Part shown: positions 4,815-34,375 of the stretch, one piece after another
Position numbering within the stretch: the stretch's first letter is position 1
Layout of the letters: every line of letters starts with the position of its first letter
Assembly (NCBI GenBank): GCA_052327205.1
Contig: CM126203.1
Location: 216,347,543-216,382,000 of the forward strand
Reading direction: 5' to 3'
Length of the DNA stretch: 34,458 nucleotides
From: Somniosus microcephalus
Lineage: Eukaryota
The notes under the pieces: model-generated
The model's input: the letters and a program-made list of their open reading frames with translations, nothing else
Databases searched by the model: none
Told to the model about the DNA's origin: nothing
Translations under genes and position numbers: made by a program

Positions 4815-6549
4815 TATTATTATTCGTTTTATGGGATGTGGGTGTCGCTGGCAAGGTCAGCATTTATTGCCCATTCCTAACTGCCCTCGAGAAAGTGGTG
4901 GTGAGCCGCCTTCTTGAACCGCTGCTGTCCATGTGGTGAAGGTACTCCCACAGTGCTGTTAGGTAGGGAGTTCCAGGATTTTGACCCAGCGACGATGAAG
5001 GATCGGCGATATACTTCTAAGTCAGGATGGCGTGTGACTTGGAGGGAAGCTTGGAGGTGGTGGTATTCCCATGCGCCTGCTGCCCTTGTCCTTCTAGGTG
5101 AAAAAGGTCACGGGTTTGGGAAGTGCTGCTGAAGAAGCATTGGCGAGTTGCTGCAGTGCATTTTGTAGATGGACACACTGCAGCCATGGTACGCCGGTGG
5201 TGGAGAGAGTGAATGTTTCAGGTGGTGGATTGGGTGCCAATCAAGCGGGCTGCTTTGTCCTGGATGGTGTCGAGCTTCTTGTGTGTTGTTGGAGCTGCAC
5301 TCATCCAGGCAAGTGGAGAGTATTCCATCACACTCCTTACTTGTGCCTTGTAGATGGTGGAAAGGCTTTGGGGAGTCAGGAGGTGAGACACTCACCACAG
5401 AATACGTAGCCTCTGACCTGCTCTTGTTGCCACAGTATTTATGTGGCTGGTCCAGTTAAGTTTCTGGTCAATGGTGACCCCCCCAGGATGTTGATGGTGG
5501 GGGATTTGGCGATGGTAATGCCGTTGAATGTCTTGGGACGGTGGTTAGACTCTTGCTTGTTGGAGATAGTCATTGCCTGGCACTTCTGTGGCACGAATGT
5601 TACCTGCCACTTATCAGCCCAAGTCTGAACGTCATCCAGGTCTTGTTGCATGTGGGCATGGACTGTTTATTATCTGAGGAGTTGTGAATGGCACTGAACA
5701 CTGTGCAGTCATCAGCGAACATCTCCATTTCTGACCTTACGTTGGAGGGAATGTCATTGATGAAGCAGCTGAAGGAGGTTGGGCCTAGGACACTGCCCTG
5801 AGGAACTCCTGCAGCGATGTCCTAGGGCTGTGATGATTGACCTTCAACCACCACAGCCATCTTACTTTGTGCTAGTTAAGACTCCAGCCAGTGGAGAGAT
5901 TCCCCCCGCCACCCCCGATTCCCATTGACTTCAGTTTTACTAGGGCTCCTTGATGCCACACTCGGTCAAATTCTGCCTTAATGTCAAGGGCAGTCACTCT
6001 AATCTCATCCGGAATTGAGCTCAAGGACCATGTTTGGACCAAGGCTGTAATGAGGTTGGGAGCCGAGTGGTCTTGGCGGAACCCAAACTGGGCATCAGGG
6101 AGCAGGTATTTGGCCGGATTGGATTTGTCCTGCTTTTTGAGCACAGTACATACCTGGGCAGTTTTCCACATTGTTGGGTAGATGCCAGTGTTGTAGCTGT
6201 ACTGGAACAGTTTGGCTAGAGGCGCGGCTAGTTCTGGAGCACAAGTTTTCAGCACTACAGCCGGGATGTTGTCAGGGCCCGTAGCCTTTGCTGTATCCAG
6301 TGCGCTCAGCCGTTTCTTGATATCACGTGGAGTGAATCGAATTGGCTGAAGACTGGCTTCTGTGATGGTGGAGACCTCAAGAGGAGGCTGATATGGATCA
6401 TCCACTCAGCACTTCTGACTGAAGATGATTGCAAACGCTTCAGCCTTGTCTTTTGCACGCACGTGCTGGGCTCCACCATCATTGAGGATGGGGATATTCA
6501 TGGAGCCTCCTCCTCCTGTTAGTTGTTTAATGGTCCACCACCATTCCCA
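4815..6549 (-). mobile_element. 5'-truncated LINE of a second CR1-group family (decayed RT)
   Basis: Minus-strand peptides KATGPDNIPAVVLKTCAPELAAPLAKLFQ, QFGFRQDHS, ALDIKAEFDRVWH, MQQDLDDVQTWADKWQVTF; frameshifts present; A-rich 3' end near 4815. Confidence 0.9.
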
Positions 6550-6901: not shown

Positions 6902-7555
6902 AACATAGCAACATAGAAGATAGGAGCAGGAGTAGGCCATTCAGCCCCTCGAGCCTGCTCCGCCATTCAATGAGATCATGGCTGATCATCCAAATTCAGT
7001 ACCCTGTCCCTGCTTTCTCTCCATATCCCTTGATCCCTTTAGCCTTAAAAAATATATCCAACTCCTTCTTGAATATATTTAATGAATTGGCCTCTACTGC
7101 CTTCTGTGGTAGAGAATTCCACAGGTTCACCACTCTCTGGGTGAAGAAATTCCTCCCCATCTCAGTCCTAAATGGCTTACCCCCTTATCCTTAGACTGTG
7201 ACCCCTGGTTCTGGACTCCCCCGCCATCGGGAACAGCCTTCCTGCATCTAGTCTGTCTAGTGCTATTAGAATTTTATAAGTTTCAATGAGATCCCCTCTC
7301 ATTCTTCTAAACTCTAGTGAATACAAACCTAATCGACCCAATCTCTCCTCATACGTCATTCCTGCCATCCCAGGTATCAGTCTGGTGAATCTTCGCTGCA
7401 CTCCCTCCATGGCAAGAACATCCTTCCTCAGATAAGGCAACCAAAACGGCACACAATACTCGAGGTGTGGTCTCACCAAGGCCCTGTACAACTGCAGCAA
7501 GACATCTTTGCTCCTGTACTCGAATCCTCTCGCTATGAAGGCCAGCATACCATTT
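6902..7555 (-). mobile_element. CR1 LINE 3' fragment (same family as 16031-19577)
   Basis: GMLAFIARGFEYRSKDVLLQLYRALVRPHLEYC...TRGHSLRIRG; tail nearly identical to 16031-16123. Confidence 0.95.
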
Positions 7556-7801
7556 GAAGGGAATTGAAAGTTCTCAATCCAAACTTTAGATAAAAAGGTG
7601 GAAGAAACTATCTGGAGATATTCTTGGGACTGACAATTAGACAAGATATCCAAAGGATGCAAGACTAATTCAATCCTGGGCTTCTTTTAACAGAAAGATT
7701 GAGAAAGAAGTTCAATGGTTTATGATCAGGAGAACGCCAAGTCTCAATTATTGCCTTTTAATCACTCAAGTTATTTGTTTATTAAACCACATGATTACAT
7801 T

Positions 7802-10489: not shown

Positions 10490-10807
10490 GAAAGACTTGC
10501 ATTTATATAGCGCCTTTCACGACCACCAGATGTCTCAAAGCGCTTTACAGCCAATGAAGTACTTTTGAAGTGTTGTAATGTGGGAAACGCAGCAGCCAAT
10601 TTATGCACAGCAAGCTCCCACAAACAGCAACGTGATACTGACCAGATATTCTGTTTTTTTATGATGTTAGTTGAGGGATAATTATTGGCCAGGACACCAG
10701 GGATAACTCCCCAGCTCTTCTTCGAAATAGTGCCATGGGATCTTTTACGTCCACCTGAGAGAGCAGATGGGGTCTCGGTTTAACATTTCATCTGAAAGAT
10801 GACACCT
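10490..10807 (-). mobile_element. Deu-domain SINE (SacSINE1/AmnSINE1-like), 5'-truncated, with L2-type tail
   Basis: Minus strand tctttcagatgaaatgttaaaccgagacccc...aaagatcccatggcactatttcgaagaagag...cctggtgtcctggccaa matches the Deu domain as recalled; tail gtgaaaggcgctatataaatgcaagtcttt. Confidence 0.8.
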
Positions 10808-12464: not shown

Positions 12465-12935
12465 TAGGAAGGATTCAAAAGCAATGGAAGTGATGCAGCA
12501 GAGTCACTCGAGATGGGTTACAGTTATGAAGAGACTTAAGAAGCTAGGACTCTTTTTTTGGATGATCAGCCATGATCGCATTGAATGGCGGAGCAGGCTC
12601 GAAGGGCCGAATGGCCTACTCCTATCTTCTATATTTCCCATTTAGGATTAACTTGATTACTGGGTGATCCGATAGAGGCATTCAAGATTATAAGTGTTAC
12701 AATAAGGTGATGAATTATTTGCACAGGCCAGCCAAATAATGAGAAAGCTTAAAATTTAATGTAATCACAAAAATAAATTAAAGGGTAGGCTAAAAAAAAA
12801 ATCTATACGCCGAGAGCTGTTAGAACATGAAATTTTCGCCACAAACTAGTGTTGAAGCACAATCCATAGGGAATTAGATATAGTTGCTTAAAACAAATAT
12901 TAAATAGATATGGGGAGCAAACAAGCAAGTGGGTT
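12465..12935 (+). mobile_element. Degraded CR1 3' fragment with a nested younger CR1 tail (~12563-12635)
   Basis: gatcagccatgatcgcattgaatggcggagcaggctcgaagggccgaatggcctactcct tail embedded in decayed sequence resembling the ORF2 C-terminus. Confidence 0.65.
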
Positions 12936-14765: not shown

Positions 14766-15049
14766 GAATGGTGTGATCAAGGGGCAGAAAGAAGATGAGG
14801 AAGAGGAAGGGGCCAATGATAGATCTTTGTGGCAACTCCAGAGATAACAGTGCAGGGGTGGGAATAGAAGCCATTGCTGGGGATGCTCTGGTTACAATCA
14901 GATAGATAAGCATGGAACCAAGCGAGGGCAGTCCCACGGAAGTGGACAATGGAGGAGAGGCTTTGGAGGAGGTAGTGTGGTGAAACATGTAAAATAGTGC
15001 AGAGATCAAGGAGGGTGAGGAGAGATAGTCCACCACAGTCAACAGTCTT

Positions 15050-15128
15050 CAACCTGAAACGTTAACTCTTTTCTCTCTCCACAGTTGCTGCCTGGCCTGC
15101 TGAGTTTTTCCAGCGTTTTCTGTTATTA
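15050..15128. mobile_element. Penelope-like terminal repeat fragment
   Basis: acctgaaacgttaactc...ctctccacagttgctgcctggcctgctgagtttttccagc, the same unit as the arm at 26790-26851. Confidence 0.6.
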
Positions 15129-15794: not shown

Positions 15795-15892
15795 AAGACT
15801 TGCATTTATATAGCACCTTTCACAACCACCGGACATCTCAAAGCGCTTTACAGCCAATGAAGTACTTTTGAAGTGTAATAACTGTTGTAATG
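15795..15892 (-). mobile_element. Deu-SINE tail fragment
   Basis: Near-identical to 10492-10580. Confidence 0.8.
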
Positions 15893-16123: not shown

Positions 16124-19075
16124 TCAGTATCCCGTCCCCGCCTTCTCTCCGTAACCCTTAACCCCTTTTGCCCGTAGAAATATATCTAATTCCCTCTTAA
16201 ATATATTTAATGAGCTGGCGTACACTGCCCTCTGTGGCAATGAGTTCCACAGGTTCACCACTCTCTGAGTGAAGAAATTCCCCCTCATCTCTGTCCTAAA
16301 TGGTTTAGCCCTTATCCTTAAATTATGTCCTCTAGTTCTGTTCTCACCCGCCAAGGGAAACATTCCTTCTGCATCCAGTCTGTCTAGACCTGTCAGAATT
16401 TTATACACTTCTATGAGGTCCCCTCTCAATCTTCTAAACTCCAGTGTGTACATCCCTAAACTACATAGTCTCTCCTCATAGGTCATTCCCGCCATTCCTG
16501 GTATCAGCCTGGTGAATCGCCGCTGCACCCCCTCCATGGCAAGAACATCCTTCCTCAGATGAGGCGACCAAAACTGTACACAGTACTCGAGGTGTGGTCT
16601 CACCAGTGCCCTGTACAGCTGCAGCAAGGTATCCCTGTTCCTGTATTCTAACCCTTTTGCTATGAAGGCCAGCATACCGTTTGCCTTCTTGACCGCCTGT
16701 TGCACCTGCATGCTCGCCTTCAGTGACTGGTGTACAAGAACACCCAGGTCTCTCTGTACTTCCCCCTCTCCCAATCTATTGCCATTTAAATAATAATTTG
16801 CCCTCCCGTTCCTGCACCCAAGGTGGATAACTTCGCACTTGTCCACATTATAGTGCATCTGCCATTTATCCGCCCAATCGCCCAGTCTGTCCAAATCGCT
16901 CTGGAGCTTCCTGGTCTCTTCCTCTGAGCCCACCCCCCCTCCTAGTTTAGTGTCGTCTGCAAATTTGGAAATGCTGCATCCGACTCCCTGATCCAGGTCA
17001 TTAATGTAAATTGTGAACAGCTGGGGGCCCAGGACAGATCCCTGTGGTACCCCACTTGTTACTGCCTGCCATTCAGAAAATGAGCCGTTTATTCCAACTC
17101 TCTGTTTTCTATCTGACAGCCAGTTCCCTATCCACGCCAAAACTTTCCCCTTTATCCCATGAGCCTCAATTTTCCATGCTAATCTTTTATGTGGGACCTT
17201 ATCGAAGGCCTTTTGGAAGTCCAGGTACACCACATCTACTGGCTCTCCCCCATCTATTCTACCAGTTACTCCCTCAAAAAATTCCAATAGATTAGTCAAG
17301 CACGATTTACCCTTTGTAAATCCATGTTGACTCTGTCCTATCCTGTCCCCATTTGCTAAGTGCTCCGCTATTTCATCCTTAATGATGGACTCCAGCATTT
17401 TGCCCACAACTGATGTAAGGCTTACAGGTCTGTAATTACCTGCTTTTTCCCTACCCCCCTTTTTGAATAGTGGGGTAACGTTAGCTACCCTCCAATCCAT
17501 CGGCACTGTTCCCGAGTCTAATGAATTCTGAAAAATCATCCTTAGTGCATCCGCTATCTCTAGGGCCACCTCCTTCAGTACCCTAGGATGCATGTTATCA
17601 GGCCCTGGGGATTTGTCCACCTTCAATCCCTTTAGCTTCCTTAACACCATATCCTTAGAGATATTGATTTGCGTCAGTTCCTCCTTTGCCAATGTCCCTA
17701 TTTTTCCCGATATCCCAGGGAGGTTTTTTGTGTCTTCCTTCGTAAAGACTGACCCAAAGTATGCATTTAGTTGATCTGCCATTTCCTTATTTCCCATTAT
17801 ATATTCCCCCGTATCTGACTGCAATGGACCAACTTTGGTTTTCACCAGTCTTTTCCTTTTGATATACTTATAAAAGCTTTTGGAGTTAGTTTTTATATTT
17901 TCCGCCAGCTTGTTTTCGTAAGCTATTTTGCCCCTCTTGATTATGCCCTTTGCCCTCCTTTGCTCTATCTTAAACTGTTCCCAATCTTCCGCTCTGGCGC
18001 TTTTTTTGGCTATTTTATACGCCCTATCTTTGGATTTTATGCTGTCTCTAATTTCCCCTGTTATCCACGGTTGAGTCACCTTTTTAGATTTCCTTTTATG
18101 CCAGATTGGTATAAACAATTTTTGCAATTTTGTCATTCTATCTTTAAATGTTTGCCATTGTTTATCTACCTCCAGTCCTCCCAGGAACGTTGTCCAATCA
18201 GACCTACTCAGTTCCCGTCTCATGGCATCATAATTCCCCTTGTTTAAATTCAGGACCTTAGTCTCTGAGTCAATTTCTTCGCTCTCCATTTCGAGTGAGA
18301 AATCGATCATGTTATGATCGCTCTGACCCAAGGGTCCCCGTACAACAAGATTACTGATTAGTCCCTTCTCATTGCACAGTACCCAGTCCAATATAGCCTG
18401 TTCCCGAGTTGGTTCCTCGACATATTGATCCAGATAACCATCCCTCAAACACTCAAGGAATTCCTCCTCCTCATTATTTTTACTGATTAGGCTAGTCCAA
18501 TCTATATGTAAGTTAAAGTCACCTATGATGACAGCTGTGCTCTTATTGCACGCTTCTCTAATTTCCCTCGTGATGCCCTCCCTAACCTCTATTTTACTAT
18601 TTGGAGGCCTATATACCACTCCTATTAATGTTTTTCGCCCCTCGCTATTTCTTAGCTCCACCCATATAGATTCTGTATTAACTGAGTTAATATCCTTCCT
18701 TTCAATTGCATTTATCCCCTCTTTTACTAGCAATGCTACCCCTCCTCCCTTTCTTTTTTGTCGATCCTTCCTAAATACTGAATACCCCTGTATGTTAAGC
18801 TCCCAGCCCTGCTCACCCTGCAACCATGTTTCCGTAATCCCAATTAGGTCATAATTATTAACCTCTATTTCCACAGCTAATTCATCTACCTTGTTCCTGA
18901 TGCTTCTCGCATTAAGGTATAAAACCCTCAGGCTTTTTTTATGCTCACATTTTTTATGAATTAGTTTGGCCCTTTGTTTTTTGTTCCTCACCCTTTTATC
19001 ATTTATTTCTGTCTGCCTTTCACTTTCCTCTATTTCACTACATAGGTTTCTAGCCCCCTGCCATACTAGTTTAAA
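16124..19075 (-). CDS. CR1 ORF2: APE endonuclease + reverse transcriptase (frame open from 19090; ORF track starts at GTG 18991)
   Basis: EN motifs YLNARS, GITETW, VYRPP, GDFN, LDWV, SDH; RT motifs [34 protein letters not shown]; no stops over at least 955 codons. Confidence 0.95.
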   Translation of the reverse strand, partial: FKLVWQGARNLCSEIEESERQTEINDKRVRNKKQRAKLIHKKCEHKKSLRVLYLNARSIRNKVDELAVEIEVNNYDLIGITETWLQGEQGWELNIQGYSVFRKDRQKRKGGGVALLVKEGINAIERKDINSVNTESIWVELRNSEGRKTLIGVVYRPPNSKIEVREGITREIREACNKSTAVIIGDFNLHIDWTSLISKNNEEEEFLECLRDGYLDQYVEEPTREQAILDWVLCNEKGLISNLVVRGPLGQSDHNMIDFSLEMESEEIDSETKVLNLNKGNYDAMRRELSRSDWTTFLGGLEVDKQWQTFKDRMTKLQKLFIPIWHKRKSKKVTQPWITGEIRDSIKSKDRAYKIAKKSARAEDWEQFKIEQRRAKGIIKRGKIAYENKLAENIKTNSKSFYKYIKRKRLVKTKVGPLQSDTGEYIMGNKEMADQLNAYFGSVFTKEDTKNLPGISGKIGTLAKEELTQINISKDMVLRKLKGLKVDKSPGPDNMHPRVLKEVALEIADALRMIFQNSLDSGTVPMDWRVANVTPLFKKGGREKAGNYRPVSLTSVVGKMLESIIKDEIAEHLANGDRIGQSQHGFTKGKSCLTNLLEFFEGVTGRIDGGEPVDVVYLDFQKAFDKVPHKRLAWKIEAHGIKGKVLAWIGNWLSDRKQRVGINGSFSEWQAVTSGVPQGSVLGPQLFTIYINDLDQGVGCSISKFADDTKLGGGVGSEEETRKLQSDLDRLGDWADKWQMHYNVDKCEVIHLGCRNGRANYYLNGNRLGEGEVQRDLGVLVHQSLKASMQVQQAVKKANGMLAFIAKGLEYRNRDTLLQLYRALVRPHLEYCVQFWSPHLRKDVLAMEGVQRRFTRLIPGMAGMTYEERLCSLGMYTLEFRRLRGDLIEVYKILTGLDRLDAEGMFPLAGENRTRGHNLRIRAKPFRTEMRGNFFTQRVVNLWNSLPQRAVYASSLNIFKRELDIFLRAKGVKGYGEKAGTGY

Positions 19076-19575
19076 TGCTCCCGAACTGCTTTATCAAAAA
19101 TTACCCCGAGAACATCAGTTCCATCTCTGCACAGGTGTAGACCGTCCCTTTTGTATAGGTCACACCTACCACAAAACTGGTTCCAATGCCTCAAAAATTT
19201 AAAACCCTCCCTCTTACACCACTGCTCAAGCCACGTATTTAGCCTAACTATCCTGTTCTCTGTACTCTTACTAGCACGTGGCACTGGTAGTAATCCAGAG
19301 ATTACTACCTTCGAGGTCCTACTTTTTAGCTTGGCTCCTAACTCCCGAAATTCTACTTGTAGGACCTCTTCCCTTTTTTTAGCTACGTCGTTGGTACCAA
19401 CATGTATCACGACAACTGGCTGTTCCCCCTCCCCCTCCAGAATGTTCTGCACCCGCGCCGAGACATCCTTGACCCTTGCACCAGGGAGGCAACATACCAT
19501 CCTGGAGTCTCGGTCGCGACCACAGAAACCCCTATCTATTCCCCTTACAATCGAATCCCCTATTACTATAGCCTG
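19066..19575 (-). CDS. CR1 ORF1 C-terminal SGNH/GDSL esterase domain (5'-truncated)
   Basis: QAIVIGDSIVRG (block I), PGA (II), VIHVGTND (III), DGLHL (V); ends ...EHLN*; upstream part lost at ~19577. Confidence 0.9.
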   Translation of the reverse strand, partial: QAIVIGDSIVRGIDRGFCGRDRDSRMVCCLPGARVKDVSARVQNILEGEGEQPVVVIHVGTNDVAKKREEVLQVEFRELGAKLKSRTSKVVISGLLPVPRASKSTENRIVRLNTWLEQWCKREGFKFLRHWNQFCGRCDLYKRDGLHLCRDGTDVLGVIFDKAVREHLN

Positions 19576-20231: not shown

Positions 20232-20482
20232 TACATAGAATTTACAGCAGAGGCAGGCCATTCAGACCAACTGTTTATACTCCACACAAGCCTCCTCCCA
20301 CCTCTCTTCATCTAACCCCATCAGCATAACCTTCTATTGCTTTCTCCCCTCATGTGCGTATCCAGCTTCTCCTTAAATGCATCGCGCTATTCACCACAAC
20401 TACTCCTGGTGGTAGCGCGTGCCATATTCTCGCTGCTCTAGAAAAAGAAGTTTCTCCTGAATTTCCTGTTAGATTTATTAGT
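20232..20482 (-). mobile_element. CR1-type tail fragment split by the Gypsy insertion (continues at 25379-25425)
   Basis: Similar to 1076-1345; reads agatttattagt|gaccaacttatatttatgg once the Gypsy element is removed. Confidence 0.75.
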
Positions 20483-20696
20483 TGTAGTGTATCTACCTTT
20501 AAGGGGAGAACTACTTTTTACAGCTCCTGTATACTGTAGTACCAGCAGTGACCACACCTGTATATAAACCCTGAGTAGGGATCTGTACTGTTAGTTTTAG
20601 AGTAACCCTCATCCAGTAAACACCTGTTGATTGTTCCTCTGCAGTCGCTGTCTATTTCTTGAAGGACACCATACATCAAGATTCACGGATTTAACA
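20483..20696 (+). repeat. 5' LTR (214 bp)
   Basis: TGTAGTG...TTAACA; TATATAAA at ~20561 and AGTAAA at ~20615; repeated at 25174-25378. Confidence 0.95.
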
Positions 20697-20697
20697 T

Positions 20698-20707
20698 TGG
20701 CGACGAG
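20698..20707 (+). promoter_or_regulatory. Primer binding site TGGCGACGAG (probably tRNA-Ser)
   Basis: One base after the LTR; complementary to ...CTCGTCGCCA, recalled as the 3' end of vertebrate tRNA-Ser(GCU). Confidence 0.8.
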
Positions 20708-21009
20708 TCGATTCGAGCCTACCTGCAACTCTGCAGAGGAAGGCCGATTCCAGAGGCACGGGCGTCGACCATCCGGCGGAGACTCCAGCGAGGCAGGCTG
20801 GCAACAGGTACGGCGCAGACCCATCCCGCACAGCGGCGGCTAGAGCCGACCGACGGCACAGGAAAAAGGCCGAGCAGCATCCGCGGGAGCAGAGAGAGGG
20901 TAAAGTGCACAGGGCGCAGCCGGGGTTCAGGACCGAGCGGCGTCAACGAGAGGCGCGCAGGAAAACGCGCAGAGCGCGGCCAGTGTTCAAGGGCTGAGCA
21001 ACGTCCGCG

Positions 21010-21133
21010 GGGGAAGAAAGGAAAGCGCGGGAGACGCCATTTGAGCCGCAGCGGAGAAGAAGGGAGAGCGCGGGAGACGCCATTTTGAGCCACAGCGGAG
21101 AAGGGAGAGCGCGGGAGACGCCATTTTTAGCCA
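21010..21133 (+). repeat. Three tandem ~40-bp units in the Gypsy leader
   Basis: gaagggagagcgcgggagacgccatttt(g)agcc occurs three times. Confidence 0.9.
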
Positions 21134-21161
21134 GTCTAACCACACCCAGGGATACCGAAGA

Positions 21162-24100
21162 GTGGCAGTGTCACAGCGTTCGACAATGGTCGAAGATTGG
21201 GCGACATATGTAGAACGCATAGAAGTGTACTGCAAGGCGAATGAAGTGCCAGATGCCAGGAAAGCACTGGTATTGTTGAATTCAATGGGTGCAAAAACGT
21301 ATGGCTTACTGCGAAACCTAGTAACCCCAGAGAAGCCAGTGGAAAAGGATTTTGAAAGCATAGTGGCAATCCTACAGGACCAGTTAAACCCCACACCGCT
21401 GCTGATAGCAGAAAGATTTAAGTTTCACAAAAGGAACCAGCATAAAGACGAAAGCAATGCTGAGTATTTAACGGAACTGCGCAAGCTATCGAAACACTGC
21501 CAGTTTGGAGCGGGACGAGCAGATACTTTAAAGGGACAAGTTTGTGTGTGGGCTTGAAAGTGAAGGAACCCAGAAACGGCTTCTATCAGAAAAGGATCTT
21601 ACGCTGGACAAGGCTTTCAGCATGGCAGTATCACACGAAGCAGCCGCACAGGGCACTGCAGAGATACAACGGAGACCGCAAGAATATGGCACAAATGAAA
21701 TGTCATACGGAGCAGTGAAGTGTTATCGCTGCGGCAGAACAACACACGACCATACGGATTGTTGGTTCAAGGACCAAGTGTGCAGACAGTGTGGAAAAGT
21801 AGGACACATAGCAAGAGTCTACAGGTCGGGAAAGGAAACCAGCAGCAAGAAATCTCCACAGGAGAAGTACAAAAAGGTACATAAGGTGACAGAGAGTAGT
21901 TCAGACGAACAGAAAAGTGATATAGACTCCGGAAGCAAGGAGCTGGGTTGTCTGAGACTACATAATGTAATCAAAATGGAGGATCACCAAACTATCTGGG
22001 TCACGCTCAAGATAGACGGAGTCCAAGTGAAAATGGAATTGGACACAGGATCAGCCCTAACAGTCATAAACCGAAGGGACTACAAGCGGCTTTTCTCACA
22101 TATACCCTTGAGAGATACAGAGATTGTCTTGAAGACGTACACGGGGCAAAAAGTCTACCCCAAAGGAAAAATAAGGGTGAACGTTATATATAACGGCAAG
22201 GAAACACCAAAAATGGACCTATATGTATTGCCAGATGGAGGACCACCACTACTAGGACGTGAATGGATCCGGAAGATACAGCTAGATTGGCATTCCATAC
22301 AAGCACTGACTGTAGATGCCAAAAAGGATGACGACGTCACACCTGGACGACTGTCAAAAATGCTAACTGACGCACAAGAAGTGTTCCAGGAGGGACTCGG
22401 AACACTAAAAGGCATAACAGCGACGATCAAAATAGAGGAAAATGCAAGCCCAAAGTTTCTTAAGGCCAGACCGGTGCCTTATGCGATCCGCCCAGCCGTC
22501 GAAGCAGAGCTGGAAGGTTTGGAACGTTCTGGAGTACTGTCCAAAGTGGACTGGAGTGAGTGGGCTACACCCATCGTTCCTGTAATGAAGAGGTCATTGA
22601 GTAATACGCCTGGGGAACCAAAGAAGGTTCGCATCTGTGGGGACTTTAAGGTGACAGTGAACCCAGTCCTTCACACGGTACAATATCCGCTTCCGCGGAT
22701 TGAAGATATTTTCGCCTCGCTATCTGGAGGAAAACGCTTCACTAAGATTGATCTGGCCCAGGCGTACCTGCAAATGGAGGTAGAAGAAGCCTCGAAACAG
22801 TACCTCACGATCAACACTCATAAAGGTCTCTACCAATACAACTGGCTGATGTTCGGGGTAGCATCAGCTCCGGCTATTTGGCAAAGGGCAATGGATCAAG
22901 TCCTGCAAGGGATTCCAGGGACCCAGTGTTATTTGGACGACATCCTGGTCACGGGCGAAATGACAGTGATCACTTCGCCAACCTGGAGCAGGTGCTCACT
23001 AGATTGAAGGAATATGGGCTCCGAGCTAATCGCCACAAATGCGAGTTTTTCCAGAAGCAGATCTTGTATTGTGGCCACGTTATTGATGAAGAGGGGTTAC
23101 ATAAGTCCCCTGAAAAGATTGAGGCAGTAGTCAAGGCTCCAGCACCGGAAAATGTGTCACAATTGAGGTCGTTCCTTGGGCTGGTGAACTACTACCATAA
23201 GTTCTTGCCGAATTTGTCTACAGTACTACACCCACTGAACACCCTACTGCAAACGGGGGTACCATGGAAGTGGAATGACTAATGTAAATGAGCTTTCCAG
23301 AAGTGCAAAGAATTGATCACATCAAAAGAGGTGTTGGCTCATTTCAACCCAGCACTACCAATTCGGTTGGCGTGTGATGCATCACCCTATGGTATTGGAG
23401 CGGTGCTGTTGCACAAATTCCCGGACGGCTCGGAGAGGCCAGTAGCCTTTGCGTCTCGGTCACTAACCTCAGCCGAGCGTAACTTCGCCCAGATTGACAG
23501 GGAGGCCCTCAGCCTAGTGTGGGGAGTGAAAAAGTTCAACCACTATCTGCACGGGCAGAAGTTCACCTTGCTGACTGACCACCAACCACTTGTCTCCATC
23601 TTTAATCCAAAGAAGGGCATTCCGGTGATGACTGCGCAACGGCTACAATGATGGTCCCTTTTTCTAGGGGCGAACCAATATGAAATCGAGTATAAGGGCA
23701 CGAAACAGCATGGAAACGCTGATGGGCTATCACGCCTGCCACTGCCTACTGCGGAGGAAGCACCAGCAGTGGACCTTGTCGAAATATTTTATTCGACTAT
23801 AATTGAACGCTTGCCAGTAACTAACGCGGATATAGAGAAGGAGACCCGAAATGACCCGACACTGTCTCGGGTATATGACTTGACGGTGAAGAGATGGCCA
23901 ACACATGGCGACGCACTGTTGACAGCATTCTCATCCAGAAGAGAACAGCTGTCAGTATGCCAGGGGACCTTGATGTGTGGATCCCGAGTGGTAATTCCAC
24001 CCAAGTTAAGGGAGAGAGTGCTCAATGAGCTTCACGAAGGCCATCTGGGAGGGGTGAAAATGAAAAGCCTTGCTAGGGCTTATGTGTGGTGGCCGGGGAT

Positions 24101-25075
24101 CGATCAGCAAATCGAGGACCTGACAAAGAGCTGCTCAAGATGCCAGAAGGTCCAAAATGCACCACCACATGCCCCTCTACACCCATGGGAGTGGCCCTCC
24201 TCTCCATGGCAACGGGTGCATATTGATTTTGCTGGTCCATTCACGGACTCAATGTTTTTAATAGCCGTGGATGCGCACTCGAAATGGCCTTAGGTGATCA
24301 AAATGTCCTCCACCACCACGGAGAAAACGATTGCAGTCCTATGGACCATATTTGCCAGGAACGGCTTGCCAGAGCAGATTTGCTCTGATAACGGACCACA
24401 GTTTGTGTCCGAAGAGTTTCGGAAATTTAGGAAAAGGAATGGGGTAAGGCATTACACATCCGCCCCGTATCATCCAGCCACAAATGGATTGGCTGAGAGG
24501 TTCGTACAAACCTTTAAAAAGGCAGTAAGGGCCATGTGCGATGACGACATTCCACTGCAGCATAAGGTGGACAATTTCCTGTTAGCCTACAGAAATGCGA
24601 CACATGCAGTCACCAACCAGACCCCGGCCATGATGTTCTTTAACCGAAGGTTGAGATCTCGTCTGGATTTGCTCAGACCAAATGTACGAAGAGATGTTGA
24701 GAATAAGCAATTCCAGCACATCAATGAGAAGCTGACAAGGAGCTTCAATGTAGGGCAACCAGTCTTGGCCCGCGACTACCGAACAGAGAAATGGCAACCA
24801 GGAACGATATGTACACAGTGGATGTTGGGGAGAACATTGTGAGATGCCATGTCGACCAGATCCTAGAGTCACAGGAATGAGTCAACCCCATGTCTCGCAT
24901 ACCTGGTGATGAACCCGATATACAGGTAGCATCTACCCCAGAAACAGTAGCATCGGAAGCTGACGAACCAACCGACGACAGGGGGCCAGAATCGCCTCTG
25001 CACCAAGAGCAAGACACTCAGGAAAGGCGCTATCCAGAAAGGATCAGGAAGCCGCCCCAAAGACTGAATTTATAA
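21162..25075 (+). pseudogene. Gypsy gag-pol, disrupted
   Basis: Gag EDWATYVER, zinc knuckles CYRCG..H..C and CRQCGKVGH; protease ELDTGSA; RT YLDD; RNase H LACDASPYG; integrase HEGHLG, IDFAGP, SDNGPQF, NGLAER. Stops at ~23280, ~23649 and ~24291 plus several frameshifts. Confidence 0.95.
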
Positions 25076-25142
25076 ATGGACTATTTTCAGTTAATGTTGC
25101 ATGTTAAAAGTGTTAATTGTTAAATGAATGTTATGGTACTGT

Positions 25143-25378
25143 TACACTACAATTCCTCCCCTTTTAGATTATGTACCTTTATTAAGGGGAGAACTACTTT
25201 TTACAGCTCCTGTATACTGTAAAGTACCGGCAGTGACCACACCTGTATATAAACCGAGAGGGCTCTGTACTGTTAGTTTTAGAGTAACCCTCATCCAGTA
25301 AACACCTGTTGATTGTTCCTCTGCAGTCTCTGTCTATTTCTTGAAGGACACCATACATCAAGATTCACGGATTTAACA
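25143..25378 (+). repeat. 3' LTR (its first bases and the PPT are inverted)
   Basis: 25174-25378 matches the 5' LTR with a few indels and substitutions; TGTAGTGTA plus the purine tract read on the minus strand at 25143-25166. Confidence 0.9.
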
Positions 25379-25599
25379 TTAGTGACCAACTTATATTTAT
25401 GGATGTTCAACTAAAGGGGACCCAAGCTTTATATAAATAATGTAAAAGGTATAATATAGATGCAATAACTTTTGCAGATCAGGTGATCAGACGTCACATG
25501 ATCAAACCTCCAGCAATACATCCAACCAGTTTGCAACCCTGAGGTTATCTTCCCTCTCCAGAATGTTCCTTTAGATTTTGGCACAGGAGGGGGGGTTGG

Positions 25600-26327: not shown

Positions 26328-27103
26328 GGCCGGAATTTTCCGGGGTGGTACCGGGTACCATCGGTGGCGGGTCGGGTGGGAAAGTTATTTTTGACACCAG
26401 GTCGGGAACCCGCTGTCATCTCCCCTCCCCCTCATCTGCTTAATTTTATAATATTACCTATACACACACATCTTTTATTTGTACCAGTTACTGATACAAA
26501 AGTCTATAGATTTGTGACTAAAGCACCAATAACTTCCCAATTAATGTACTTTTTAAATTATGTTCTTGATCGTATTTGTAGACGGCGTCATAGTACTTAA
26601 TGATATTCAAATATTTCTTTGCCACTCAACTTTTATTATATTATTGTAGTGTACAGATTCAACACCCAGTTTGTTAGATTAAACTTCAAATGTAATGTGG
26701 CCATAGTCCCTTTTTAAAGAAAATGCTGGAAAAACTCAGCAGGCCAGGCAACATCCGTGGAGAGAGAAATAGAGTCAACGTTTTCAGGTCGTTGACTCTA
26801 TTTCTCTCTCCATGGATGTTACCTGGCCTGCTGAGTTTTTCCAGCATTTTCTGTTGTTATTTCGGATTTCCAGCATCCGCAGTATTTTGCTATCCCTTTT
26901 TAAAGATCCCGGCTGAAAAAGCGTCATGAATGACATCACCAGACCCGTTCCATCTCATTGGGCCGGGTAACTCACTGGGTGGGTTTAATAGGCCCCATTA
27001 AGGTAAGTTCATTTTCAACAGCAGGATGGAGCCAGCAGTGAGGTCGGGACCCGATGTAGCCACCGCCCGCACCAGACCCGCCATGGTAAAGAAAATTCTG
27101 GCC
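26328..27103. mobile_element. Harbinger-type MITE with an internal insertion
   Basis: Ends ggccggaatttt...tggcgggtc / gacccgcca...aaaattctggcc. Confidence 0.65.
26719..26851. repeat. 62-bp-arm near-perfect inverted repeat (Penelope-like termini)
   Basis: Arms 26719-26780 and 26790-26851, 9-nt loop, two mismatches. Confidence 0.9.
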
Positions 27104-28639: not shown

Positions 28640-29475
28640 AGGTCTGAAATTACTACACTCATAATAAACAAAGGGACATTGATTAAGTGAGTGGGCAAAA
28701 CTGTGGCAGATGGAGTTAAATGTGAGATCATCCACTTTGGAAGAAAGATAGACCAGAATATTTTCTAAATGGCAAGAAGATAGGCGAGCAGAGAGAATTA
28801 GGGGTCCAAGTACAGAAATCCCTAAAAGCTAATGGACGGGTGCAAATAATAATTAAAAAGACTAATGGAATGTTGGCCTTTATCTCACGGGGGCTGGAAT
28901 ACAAAGGGACAGCTGTACAGAGCTCTGGTGAGAGCCCATCTTGAGTACTGCATTCAGTTTGGGCACCGCAACTCAAGCAGGATATATTGGCCTTGGAGTG
29001 GATGCAGCACAGATTCACCAGAATGAAGCTGGGGCTAAAAGGGTTAAGTTGTGAGGATAGGTTGCATCGGCACTAGGCTTGTGTTCCCTTGAGGATAGAA
29101 GATTAAGGGTGATCTAATTGAGTTTAAGATGATTAAAGGAGTGAGTTGATCGGGTAGATAGAGAGACACTCTGGTAGGGAGTCCAGAACTAGGAGGCATA
29201 ACCTTAAAATTAGAGCTAGGCCATTAAGTGGTGATGTCAGGAAGCAGTTCTTCACACAAACGGTAGTGGAAATTTGGAACTCTCTCAAAAGCTGTTTAGG
29301 CTAGGTCAATAAGATTCCAAAACTGAGATTGAAAGATCAGTGTTAGGCAAGGGTATTAAGGATTACAGAATCAAGGTGGGTAGGTGGAGTTAAGATTTGG
29401 ATCAGCCATGATCTAATTGAATGGCGGAACAGACTCAACGGGCTGATTGGCCTACTCCTGTTCCTATGTTCCTAA
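28640..29475 (+). mobile_element. Degraded CR1 3' fragment
   Basis: Decayed WA..WQM, ANGMLAFISRGLEYK and LEYC motifs; tail ggcctactcctgttcctatgttccta. Confidence 0.9.
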
Positions 29476-29737
29476 ATTGGAGAACTCCAAATTGCCTTGG
29501 AGAAAGATGACGTTGAGAGTAGTAAGGTTTTTGAAGAGACTCAAATGCTGGAGGAACAGTTAGTAATGGTCAGTATGCTTAATTCGACAAACTACCTATT
29601 GCAGTATTTGTTTAAAGGACATAACAATTTAAATGCATCTTGTCATCTGATATAGGGGTTAACTGTAATAATGGTTCTAACCATGTGGGAAACGGACGAC
29701 AGCAGATCGGCCGCTCATTTTACTTCGGTATAAAAGA

Positions 29738-31389
29738 ATTAGGAGCAGGAGTAGGCCATACGGCCATTCAATAAGCTCATGGCTGATCGACCTCCACTCC
29801 ACTTTCCCACCCGATTTCCATATCCCTTGATTCCCCTAGAGTCCAAAAATCTATTTATCTCAGCCCTGAATATACTCAACGACTCAACATCCACAGCCCT
29901 TTGGGGTAGAGAATTCCAAAGATTCACAACTCTGAGTGAAGAAATTCCATCTCCTCTCGGTCCTAAATTGCCAACCCCTTATCCTGAGACTATGCCCCCT
30001 AGTTCTAGACTCTCCAGCCAGGGGAAACAGCCTCTCAGCATCTACCCTGTCAATCCTCCTCAATCTTGTATGTTTCAATGAGATCATCTTTCATTTTTCT
30101 AAACCCCAGAGAGTATAGACTCAATCCCTCCTCACAGGACAACCCTCTCATCCTAGGGATCAATCCAGTGACCCTTCGCTGCACCGCCTCGAAGGCAGGT
30201 ATGTCCTCTCTGAGATAAGGAGACCAAAACTGTGCCCAGTACTCCAGGTGTGGTCTCACCAGGGCCCTGTACAATTGTAGTAAGACTTCCGTACTCTTGT
30301 GCTCCAACCCCTGGCAATAAAGGCCAACCTGCCATTCGCCTTCCTAATTGCTTGCTGGACCTGCATGCTAACTCTCTGTGTTTCCTATACGAGGACACCT
30401 AAATCTCTGAACACCAACATTTAATGGTTTCTCGCCATTTAAAAAATATTCTGTTTTTCTATTTTTCCTACCAAAGTGAATAACCTCACATTTTCCCACA
30501 TCTGCCACCTTATTGCCCACTCTCTGTGTCCTCCTCACAGCTTACTTTCTCATCTAGCTTTGTATCGGTGGCAAACTTGGATACATTGCACTCGGTACCT
30601 TCATCTAAGTCATTAATATAGATTGTAAATAGCTGAGGCCCAAGCACTGATCCCTGTGGCACTCCATTAGTTACAGCCTGCCAACCGGAAAATGATCCGT
30701 TTATCCTTACTCTGTTTTCTGTCCATTAACCAATCCTCTATCCATGCTAATATATTATCCCCAACCCCATGAGCCCTTATTTTGCATAGTAACCTTTTAT
30801 GTGGCACCTTAACAATTGACGTTTGGAAATCCAAATATACTACATCCACTGGTTTCCCTTTATCTACCTTGTTAATTACATCCTCAATAAACTCTAATAA
30901 ACTTATTAAACATGATTTTCATTTCATAAAACCATGTTGACTCTGTCTAATCATATTATGATTTTCTAAATGCCCTGATACCACTTCCTTAATAATGGAT
31001 TCCAGCATTTTCCCGACAACTGATGTCAGGCTAACTGGCCTGTTGTTTCCTGTTTGTTCTCTCCCTCCTTTTGCTCCCTTTCAATCTCCTGGGATCGTTC
31101 TAGAATCTAGGGAATTTTGGAAGATCACAACCAATACATCCATTATCTCTGCAGCCACCTCTTTTAGAACCCTGGGATGTAGGCCATCAGGTCCAGGGGA
31201 TTTGTCGGATTTTAGACCCATTAGTTTCTCAAGTACATTTTCCTCTATTGATATTAATTACTTTAAGTTCCTCACTCTTATTAGTCCCTTGGTTCCCCAC
31301 TATTTTTGGTATGTTTTTTGTGTCTTCTACTCTGAAGACAGATACAAAATATTCGTTTATACTCTCTGCCATTTCCTTATTCCTCATTA
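29738..31389 (-). mobile_element. CR1 ORF2 fragment, cut at 31389 by the Helitron-like element
   Basis: DVVYLDFQ, LLQLYRALVRPHLEY, TRGHSLRIRG, NLWNSLPQRAV; collinear with 16050-17800. Confidence 0.95.
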
Positions 31390-32004
31390 TCTTCTATCCA
31401 TCTATCTATCTATCTATATATATAAAGGAGTCGATCAGTCTGTCCTTCTGTCTGTCTGTCCTTCTGTCTGTCTGTCCTTCTGTCTGTCCTTCTGTCTGTC
31501 TGTCCTCGGGTGTGCGTCTGTCCGGCTATGCGCTCGAAAGTTATACCGTGTACCTACGCGCGCGTTACCTCCGAAGAAAGCTTACGCTTCCGGGACGCTG
31601 GTAAGCGTATTTAAGTTTCGGCCGGACAAAAATTGCGCCCGCGGTATCCGAAAAACCTTCAACATTCCGCTCATTATCCACTCATTACCATAGAGTGACA
31701 TTGAGGTCGACCAATCGTACAGTCGACCAACCCGATGGTCAACCAATCAATGCGTGGCGGGTTCGTCGCATGTGCAGCCGGGCCCTCCTAGAGTCGAGTG
31801 ACAGGACGATTGACCAATCCTATGCTTCGGTGACATGACGATCGACCAATCAGTGCGTGTGTGGGCGGGCCTTATCGTTCTGAACTGAGGTGAGTGGCCG
31901 CCATCTTTATTCTCACCTGTGTGTTTATTTGTTAGGAGCGATTTTTTTTTTTTTAATGTGTAAAACGTAAAAACACAATGTCTAAAACGTTAAAACACAA
32001 TGAA

Positions 32005-32419: not shown

Positions 32420-32474
<55 letters not shown>

Positions 32475-33875
32475 CTTCCCCCCCTCCCTCGCCACCCCCC
32501 CTTGCATCCCTCACCCTCTCCCTCGCCCCCTCCCTCTCCCCCGCCCCCTCTCCCTCCGCCCCCTCTCCCTCGCCCCCCCTCTCCCTCGCCCCCCCCCCTC
32601 CCTCGCCGCCCCCCCTCGCTCCCCCCCTCTCCCCCCCTCTCCCATCTCCCTCTCCCTCCCTCGCCCCCCCTCTCCCTCGCCCCCCCTCTCCCTCGCCCCC
32701 CCTCTCCCTCGCCCCCCCTCTCCCTCGCCCCCCCTCTCCCTCGCCCCCCCTCTCCCTCGCCCCCCCTCCCTCGCCCCCCCCTCTCCCTCGCCCCCCCTCT
32801 CCCTCGCCCCCCCTCTCCCTCGCCCCCCCTCTCCCTCGCCCCCCCCTCTCCCTCGCCCCCCCCCTCTCCCTCGCCCCCCCCTCTCCCTCGCCCCCCCTCT
32901 CCCTCGCCCCCCCTCTCCTCGCCCCCTCTCCCTCGCCCCCCCCTCCCTCGCCCCCCCTCCCTCGCCCCCCCTCCCTCGCCCCCTCTCCCTCGCCCCCCCC
33001 TCTCCCTCGCCCCCCCCTCCCCCTCCCTCGCCCCCCCTCTCCCTCTCCCTCGCCCCCCCTCTCCCTCGCCTCTCCCTCGCCCCCCCCCCTCTCCCTCTCC
33101 TTCGCCCCCCCCTCCCTCTCCCTCGCCCCCCCCCTCTCCTCTCCCTCGCCCCCCCCTCTCCCTCGCCCCCCCCGCTCTCCCTCGCCCCCCCCTCTCCCTC
33201 GCCCCCCCCTCTCCCTCGCCCCCCCTCTCCCTCGCCCCCCCTCTCCCTCGCCCCCCCTCTCCCTCTCCCTCGCCCCCCTCTCCCTCGCCTCTCCCTCGCC
33301 CCCCCCCTCTCCCTCTCCTTCGCCCCCCCCTCCCTCTCCCTCGCCCCCCCTCTCCCTCTCCCCTCTCCCTCGCCCCCCCCTCTCCCTCGCCCCCCCCCTC
33401 TCCCTCGCCCCCCCCCTCTCCCTCGCCCCCCACCTCCCCCCTCTCCCTCGCCCCCCCTCTCCCCTCGCCCCCCCTCTCCCTCGCCCCCCCCTCTCCCTCG
33501 CCCCCCCTCTCCCTCGCCCCCCCCTCCCTCGCCCCCCCTCTCCCTCGCCCCCCCTCTCCCTCGCCCCCCCTCTCCCTCGCCCCCCCTCTCCCTCGCCCCC
33601 CCCCCCTCTCCCTCGCCCCCCCTCTCCCTCGCCCCCCCTCCCTCGCCCCCCCCCCTCCCTCGCCCCCCCTCCTCCCTCGCCCCCCCCTCTCCCTCGCCCC
33701 CCCCTCTCCCTCGCCCCCCCCTCTCCCTCGCCCCCCCTCTCCCTCGCCCCCCCTCTCCCTCGCCCCCCCTCTCCCTCGCCCCCCCCTCTCCCTCGCCCCC
33801 CTCTCCCTCGCCCCCCCTCTCCCTCGCCCCCCCTCTCCCTCGCCCCCCCTCTCCCTCGCCCCCCCTCTCCCTCGC
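32396..33875. repeat. (CCT)n/(CT)n/(CTTT)n microsatellites followed by a ~16-bp (CTCTCCCTCGCCCCCC)n minisatellite
   Basis: Directly visible; C-run length varies between units. Confidence 0.97.
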
Positions 33876-34375
33876 NNNNNNNNNNNNNNNNNNNNNNNNN
33901 NNNNNNNNNNNNNNNNNNNNNNNNNNNNNNNNNNNNNNNNNNNNNNNNNNNNNNNNNNNNNNNNNNNNNNNNNNNNNNNNNNNNNNNNNNNNNNNNNNNN
34001 NNNNNNNNNNNNNNNNNNNNNNNNNNNNNNNNNNNNNNNNNNNNNNNNNNNNNNNNNNNNNNNNNNNNNNNNNNNNNNNNNNNNNNNNNNNNNNNNNNNN
34101 NNNNNNNNNNNNNNNNNNNNNNNNNNNNNNNNNNNNNNNNNNNNNNNNNNNNNNNNNNNNNNNNNNNNNNNNNNNNNNNNNNNNNNNNNNNNNNNNNNNN
34201 NNNNNNNNNNNNNNNNNNNNNNNNNNNNNNNNNNNNNNNNNNNNNNNNNNNNNNNNNNNNNNNNNNNNNNNNNNNNNNNNNNNNNNNNNNNNNNNNNNNN
34301 NNNNNNNNNNNNNNNNNNNNNNNNNNNNNNNNNNNNNNNNNNNNNNNNNNNNNNNNNNNNNNNNNNNNNNNNNNN
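33876..34375. other. Assembly gap (500 N)
   Basis: Run of N. Confidence 1.

Follow-up and report, generated by a model that had tools for sequence, protein, structure and literature searches.

An in-phase U_UUA_AAC heptamer conserved at the ORF1/ORF2 junction of CR1 elements is a likely -1 frameshift site

The 34,458-nt stretch of Somniosus microcephalus DNA analyzed here (GenBank assembly GCA_052327205.1, contig CM126203.1, forward-strand positions 216,347,543 to 216,382,000; hereafter the window) carries on its minus strand a copy of CR1, a long interspersed element (LINE). In this copy, the end of the element's initial open reading frame (ORF1) overlaps the frame of ORF2, and the overlap contains a slippery heptamer, U_UUA_AAC, directly ahead of the ORF1 stop codon. 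The features of the element are listed below in window coordinates.

19066..19575 (-): C-terminal half of CR1 ORF1, an SGNH/GDSL esterase of 169 amino acids plus stop, 5'-truncated (Pfam, profile match and structure model)
19069..19090 (-): overlap of ORF1 and the -1 frame, 22 nt, the sole stretch permitting a -1 shift into ORF2
19069..19075 (-): U_UUA_AAC, the slippery heptamer, matching the phase of the final ORF1 codons, Leu-Asn (sequence and conservation)
19066..19068 (-): ORF1 stop TAG, immediately 3' of the heptamer (relatives use TAG, TAA or TGA)
19062..19064 (-): ATG one base past the stop, out of frame, opening a 4-codon ORF that never enters ORF2
19054..19058 (-): G-run starting 10 nt past the heptamer, which may be a linear stimulator or represent Gly codons in the transframe linker (sequence; relatives by eye)
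18914..19069 (-): charged linker of 52 codons from the shift site to the endonuclease N-A-R-S motif, without in-frame AUG, purine-rich and unstructured
18314..18913 (-): APE-type endonuclease domain (Pfam PF03372, ORF2 residues 60-259)
18308..18310 (-): first in-frame ATG of ORF2, past the endonuclease S-D-H motif
16823..17455 (-): reverse transcriptase domain (Pfam PF00078, ORF2 residues 546-756)
16124..19090 (-): ORF2 reading frame, stop to stop, unbroken, 988 codons
16030..16123 (-): 3' untranslated region (UTR) with a stem-loop (about 16090-16052) and a short TCTATGTA-type repeated tail (fold; tail read from the sequence)

ORF1, read on the minus strand, closes with GAG CAT TTA AAC TAG, and the -1 frame, which opens at 19090 after TGA TAA, remains open down to 16124. 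Counted from the heptamer, frame 0 reaches a stop after 2 codons, the +1 frame immediately and the -1 frame after 983. The 0 frame encodes a GDSL esterase (Pfam E 8.5e-12; E 7e-52 for the ORF1 profile against the ZfL2-1 ORF1 esterase structure 4C1B), and the -1 frame encodes the endonuclease (EN) together with the reverse transcriptase (RT); a Pfam scan found no protease domain in ORF2. The first in-frame ATG of ORF2 is codon 261 (18310), or 228 when counted from a GTG at 18991. An earlier note on this DNA, made from the letters alone, had reported the heptamer at 19075-19069 in X_XXY_YYZ phase with the stop adjacent, a -1 frame running without a stop into EN-RT, and no in-frame ATG before about residue 228, after the S-D-H motif. 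Re-reading the sequence agreed with all three, and Pfam recognized both enzymatic domains in the 988 codons. The GTG at 18991, which had been taken as the start of ORF2, was without support.

The element has the hallmarks of CR1: an APE endonuclease and an RT in ORF2, an SGNH esterase ORF1 upstream, and a 3' stem-loop with a short-repeat tail instead of poly(A). Its ORF1 protein groups with shark and ray proteins, and its junction resembles rows labelled CR1 in a published set of consensuses (PMC13343379), as judged by eye. The copy is 5'-truncated, since seven full-length relatives align only from their residue 139-150, and the locus is therefore unable to start ORF1 itself. Because ORF2 is unbroken, the copy is probably young. 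Slippery-type X_XXY_YYZ sequences occupy 8/1153 in-phase codon pairs of the element, and TTTAAAC itself 2/1153 (the junction and position 18248). At such frequencies one copy alone is modest evidence, and the family data carry the case. The second in-phase TTTAAAC (18248-18242, minus strand) lies inside ORF2, just past the endonuclease.

Two homologue searches and one profile search yielded 245 ORF1-like proteins. With the window protein added, 174/246 covered the esterase up to and including the catalytic D-x-x-H and were kept, whereas the other 72, being partial, were excluded. A quick maximum-likelihood tree of the kept proteins showed three groups. The window protein falls in a vertebrate-CR1 group that includes named shark, ray, chimaera and frog proteins. 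In this group, 73/82 proteins end in a tripeptide encodable as N-N-X, X-X-Y, Y-Y-Z, against a background of 0.040 slip-compatible tripeptides per position inside the same proteins. Most (72/82) end in Leu-Asn-stop (LN-stop), and the LN ending was present in 25/29 representatives at 50% identity; the search queries contained LN, so LN-enders were slightly favoured in the ranking. The controls lacked the signature: slip-compatible endings were found in 2/25 proteins of the ZfL2-1-like group, where LN, GN or KN endings numbered 0/23, and in 1/17 bacterial SGNH genes with a stop in reach, from the 18 loci (24-32% identity), all those returned by a contig scan for relatives' DNA. A search of a plasmid collection gave no match. 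Two CR1-type ORF1 esterases among the proteins are labelled bacterial (P0007, Pseudomonas aeruginosa; P0302, a Planctomycetes metagenome-assembled genome) and sit on contigs of 2-4 kb; both are probably animal contamination.

The protein data also reached the codon level. Residues that no T-ending codon encodes (K, E, Q, M or W) precede LN in 1/85 cases versus 98/425 at positions -8 to -4 (P 5e-8, a value that overstates independence because the sequences are related), so the base ahead of the Leu codon is constrained. Four vertebrate-type copies with a frame-slipped annotation read FKL at the place of the heptamer (4/4 shifted copies). LN-stop in one frame and FKL in the other permit only T_TTA_AAY_TRR; TTA accounts for 18/110 Leu codons in the element. 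One of these four is P0074, the only one among 52 longer matches that joins the esterase to the endonuclease; we rejected it as a natural fusion, since it is a frame-shifted gene model that continues into the endonuclease. ORF1 length past the catalytic Asp is nearly constant, at 26 residues, in the vertebrate clade.

Nucleotide evidence was taken from Table S2 of PMC13343379, which holds 1,003 vertebrate consensuses, using the first 400 nt of rows, read by eye. TTTAAAC followed by a stop occurred in 23 rows, 18 of them at the end of ORF1 and 5 elsewhere, in a search that selects for the motif itself. The 18 junction rows come from 12 species: halosaur, bowfin, coelacanth, bullfrog, bearded dragon, alligator, crocodile, chimaera, stingray, sawfish, catshark and dogfish. 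TAG, TAA and TGA are all used among them, TAA or TGA in 7/18. Searching with esterase codons returned 17 rows, 9 at the esterase motif, of which 8 showed the ORF1 end and 8/8 had the heptamer; these anchor codons were picked after the TTTAAAC rows were known and are not independent of them. An anchor at the endonuclease start returned 6 rows: three had the whole heptamer, one began inside it, one began after it, and one low-confidence gecko row was without it. Finally, two whole parts of the table (44 rows, picked for shark rows) contained 5 rows that cover the junction. The heptamer was whole in 4 of them and cut by the row start in 1; two of the 4 had no visible stop behind the heptamer, and only 1 junction row was new. 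The covered parts of the supplements of PMC4316615, PMC2817409 and PMC11303007, consulted for bird and turtle junctions, gave only 3' ORF2 matches or nothing.

Two further observations were made in the same table. In the dogfish consensuses SquAca_CR1-3 and -18, TTTAAAC plus stop is also present in the 5' UTR, upstream of ORF1. AldAff_Crack-2, a halosaur consensus filed under Crack, has an end that looks like that of the esterase and bears the CR1 heptamer.

The earlier note had proposed that junctions of CR1 consensuses from sharks and other vertebrates be compared. In this comparison the heptamer, its phase and the adjacent stop were kept across jawed vertebrates, and an AUG at the junction was not. 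At family level we found neither an AUG ahead of EN, nor a single fused ORF, nor loss of the heptamer, the sequence findings that the note had named as telling against frameshifting. UAAUG nevertheless occurs in 3/18 consensus rows, and a Met in two Hypanus linkers. On these comparisons, the junction signal is real, far beyond chance at family level.

More distant esterase ORF1s use other heptamers at the same place. In the third tree group, 28/67 proteins have slip-compatible tripeptide ends (LN 13, GN 10, KN 3), and 39/66 have LN, GN, KN, FF or GF with a compatible preceding residue 21-33 residues past the catalytic Asp. GN is preceded by Q or S (10/10 compatible with a G-ending codon) and KN by S, T, R, Q, A or G (14/14 compatible with an A-ending codon). 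The assignment of dipeptides to heptamers (LN to U_UUA_AAC and so on) derives from the genetic code, and U_UUA_AAC, G_GGA_AAC, A_AAA_AAC and G_GGU_UUU are among the most shift-prone heptamers (PMC5009743). GN, KN, LN and FF/GF endings are interleaved on the tree inside one supported subclade. In another subclade a short variable tail comes after KN, and the stop lies about 10 codons on. P0246 and the shifted P0226 together force A_AAA_AAC: a -1 shift fits 14/14 codons, no tested +1 offset fits, and the -1 frame meets the endonuclease N-A-R-S motif after 31 residues without a Met.

We then looked for a frameshift stimulator in the window copy, to which the folding results are limited. In 4/4 cases the downstream folds were no better than shuffles (z -0.36 to 0.52), and no stem longer than 5 bp, no pseudoknot and no quadruplex was found 3' of the heptamer, in line with the earlier note, which had seen no convincing downstream pseudoknot. 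The classical RNA structure 5-9 nt downstream of the shift site was accordingly not found in this copy. A long predicted hairpin just upstream of the heptamer (19200-19076, minus strand; z -2.13, equalled by 4/200 shuffles) was one of six folds and lies within ORF1 coding sequence. Rfam gave nothing at gathering score in the window and one chance match in the element. A G-run lies 10 nt past the heptamer in the window, 6/18 junction rows and ScyCan-14; other rows differ in spacing or lack the run, and the consensuses drop columns. Searches with three G-rich motifs seen in TTTAAAC rows returned 13 rows, 9 of them at the junction. Read in the -1 frame, the run is Gly-coding as well and may only reflect Gly codons. 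Pairing of the G-run with position 17030 or with the 3' UTR was rejected.

Taken together, an in-phase X_XXY_YYZ heptamer, a -1 frame that opens into a functional ORF without a start of its own, and conservation at the nucleotide level with exchange of heptamers point to a frameshift site, and the junction most likely acts as the -1 shift sites of retroviruses and coronaviruses do. Since no 3' structure was found, we class it apart from the classical sites of those viruses. We consider programmed -1 ribosomal frameshifting the likely means by which the CR1 family expresses ORF2, giving an esterase-EN-RT fusion, as the earlier note had suggested and as family conservation supports; that slippage occurs, and that it is the main route to the ORF2 protein (ORF2p), we infer from the sequences. 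Most ribosomes would end at Leu-Asn-stop and release the esterase ORF1 protein (ORF1p). A minority would slip back one base on U_UUA_AAC and read the variable linker into the endonuclease and RT, so that the product would be a single ORF1p-EN-RT polypeptide, in gag-pol fashion. The pause would be due to the neighbouring stop, to the G-run 10 nt downstream or to both, not to a pseudoknot. The junction anatomy, its conservation across jawed vertebrates and the swapping of heptamers in distant esterase ORF1s of LINEs are observed directly.

Several points weigh against this explanation. The window copy yielded no downstream structure, and the long-range partner of the G-run at 17030 was equalled by 15/200 shuffles and is not conserved in a further copy. 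UAAUG places an AUG in the ORF2 frame in the 3/18 junction rows given above, and the linkers of the two Hypanus proteins, P0073 and P0074, have one Met each. EubMac_CR1-1 is without an intact heptamer, and HypSab-13 and ScyCan-13 have the heptamer without a stop right behind it; all three are gappy consensuses. Leu168 ends the last helix (150-168) of the predicted ORF1 fold (predicted local distance difference test score 93.6), so part of the Leu conservation may be structural. The relatedness of the sequences, already mentioned for the P value, counts here as well.

Three other explanations were weighed. Termination at the ORF1 stop followed by reinitiation at or near it, of the SART1 type (UAAUG) or by unconventional initiation of the LINE-1 type, would give a separate ORF2p and make the heptamer a by-product. 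SART1 and LINE-1 use such routes (PMC5972666, PMC5009743), the UAAUG rows and the Hypanus Met residues fit them, and the shark codon at that place is nearly always R-T-N (ATG, GTG, GTA, GTT or ATT). However, the window codon is GTA and its nearby ATG is out of frame, archosaur and lizard rows carry GGT, GCT, AGC or AGT there, and reinitiation leaves unexplained the fixed T before the Leu codon, the heptamer swap and the KN families, in which the stop comes about 10 codons later. As a general account it is unlikely, although SART1-type reinitiation may operate in some families or alongside frameshifting, not in the window or the archosaur rows. It is less likely still that LN-stop is kept for the function of ORF1p, either because it closes the last helix or because it is a C-terminal binding motif, with ORF2 starting otherwise (non-AUG or internal entry). 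The position of Leu168 in the final helix of the model and the near-fixed 26 residues after the catalytic Asp in the vertebrate clade would suit this idea, but L, G and K replace one another despite their unlike chemistry, one subclade has KN at an internal position, LN is absent from the ZfL2-1 esterase group with the solved structure, and the 1/85 count and the FKL reading in every shifted vertebrate-type copy are not constraints on a protein.

We regard it as very improbable that the motif brings ORF2 into frame or provides its start through processing of DNA or RNA, as a splice acceptor or by transcriptional slippage or RNA editing. CTAG at the window junction resembles a 3' splice site. 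The TAA and TGA stops of 7/18 rows remove the AG, so a splice acceptor is rejected; there is no pyrimidine tract, and the longest run, of three bases, is short for polymerase slippage. Programmed -1 frameshifting remains our preferred explanation. A wider proposal, which we put forward as possible but somewhat short of probable, is that CR1, which dominates among the LINEs of sharks and archosaurs, and the wider esterase-ORF1 LINEs use a -1 shift of the gag-pol kind as their normal route to RT; that this route is older than the split of cartilaginous and bony fishes; that it is stimulated, in place of a pseudoknot, by the adjacent stop plus a linear G-run 10 nt downstream binding a protein or the ribosome; and that the replicase is an ORF1p-EN-RT fusion entering the particle via ORF1p multimerization.

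Coronavirus ORF1a/1b, where ribosomes shift at this very U_UUA_AAC, and retroviral gag-pol resemble the CR1 junction in having an in-phase X_XXY_YYZ in a short overlap, with the same shift-prone heptamers (PMC5009743), and a structural protein in the 0 frame with the replicase in the -1 frame. Unlike them, the CR1 junction has no detected pseudoknot or hairpin at 5-9 nt and a stop directly after the heptamer, and its host is a non-LTR (long terminal repeat) element with no protease domain in ORF2. PRRSV, the virus of porcine reproductive and respiratory syndrome, shows protein-activated frameshifting, in which nsp1-beta and poly(C)-binding protein act on CCCANCUCC, a linear motif about 10-11 nt downstream (PMC5009743). 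The candidate counterpart in CR1 would be the G-run at 10 nt, likewise a linear motif in place of a structure; unlike the viral one it is G-rich, not C-rich, and it may just reflect Gly codons. SART1 and LINE-1 share with CR1 a bicistronic LINE RNA and low ORF2 output, and the UAAUG of a few CR1 rows, but there ORF2p is a distinct product with a start of its own (PMC5972666), whereas most CR1 junctions are without AUG. The ZfL2-1 ORF1p (PDB 4C1B; PMC3905857) belongs to the same SGNH esterase family, but its D-x-x-H-P group is without the slippery signature. For non-LTR elements, frameshifting has been proposed in Paramecium groups 1-2, there as +1 and suggested from the consensus only (PMC5405496), and in Drosophila HeT-A, there within gag of an element without RT (PMC5009743).

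The translation of ORF2 in LINEs is a long-standing question, and the answers so far are reinitiation or unusual initiation (LINE-1, SART1). We found no report of CR1 frameshifting in full-text literature searches, which left out the CR1 papers of 1997-2003 and the Repbase and Dfam notes. Haas 1997 and 2001, Kajikawa 1997 and the Repbase/Dfam notes reportedly describe ORFs that overlap or lie close together, and may mention frameshifting. The covered parts of PMC13343379 and PMC3905857 do not mention frameshifting, and the covered part of PMC5009743 does not mention CR1. A -1 frameshift route to the copying enzyme has probably not been shown before for the LINE class. Among the LINEs of birds, crocodilians and turtles, CR1 is the most abundant (PMC4316615), and as a group it covers 22-34% of shark and ray genomes (PMC13343379). 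If true, a conserved CR1 -1 frameshift would be a third answer to the question. It would fix the ratio of ORF1p to RT, predict an esterase-EN-RT fusion and explain intact CR1 ORF2s without a usable start. Expressing CR1 ORF2 alone would then use the wrong N-terminus, and a structure-free U_UUA_AAC site would offer a new natural model of frameshift stimulation.

The rest of the window is rich in other repeats. At least six more 5'-truncated CR1 or L2-like pieces are present (6903-7611, 28686-29471, 29730-31390, 1190-1779, 5239-6492 and 12557-12635), none of which contains an ORF1 end. A Ty3/gypsy-type LTR element lies on the plus strand at 20482-25386, bounded by direct repeats of about 225 nt (20482-20704 and 25162-25386, 92.5% identical); its gag-like, protease, RT, RNase H and integrase pieces are broken by frameshifts and stops. 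Two 82-nt copies of a short repeat (15795-15876 and 10492-10573) are 94% identical and have no Rfam match. A 1.4-kb C/T-rich simple repeat (32420-33875), whose long open frames are artefacts, adjoins an assembly gap of 500 N (33876-34375). Positions 26718-26852 form a near-perfect inverted repeat with 63-nt arms and a 9-nt loop, probably two ends of a short interspersed element or a miniature inverted-repeat transposable element, and related single arms lie near 15044-15128.

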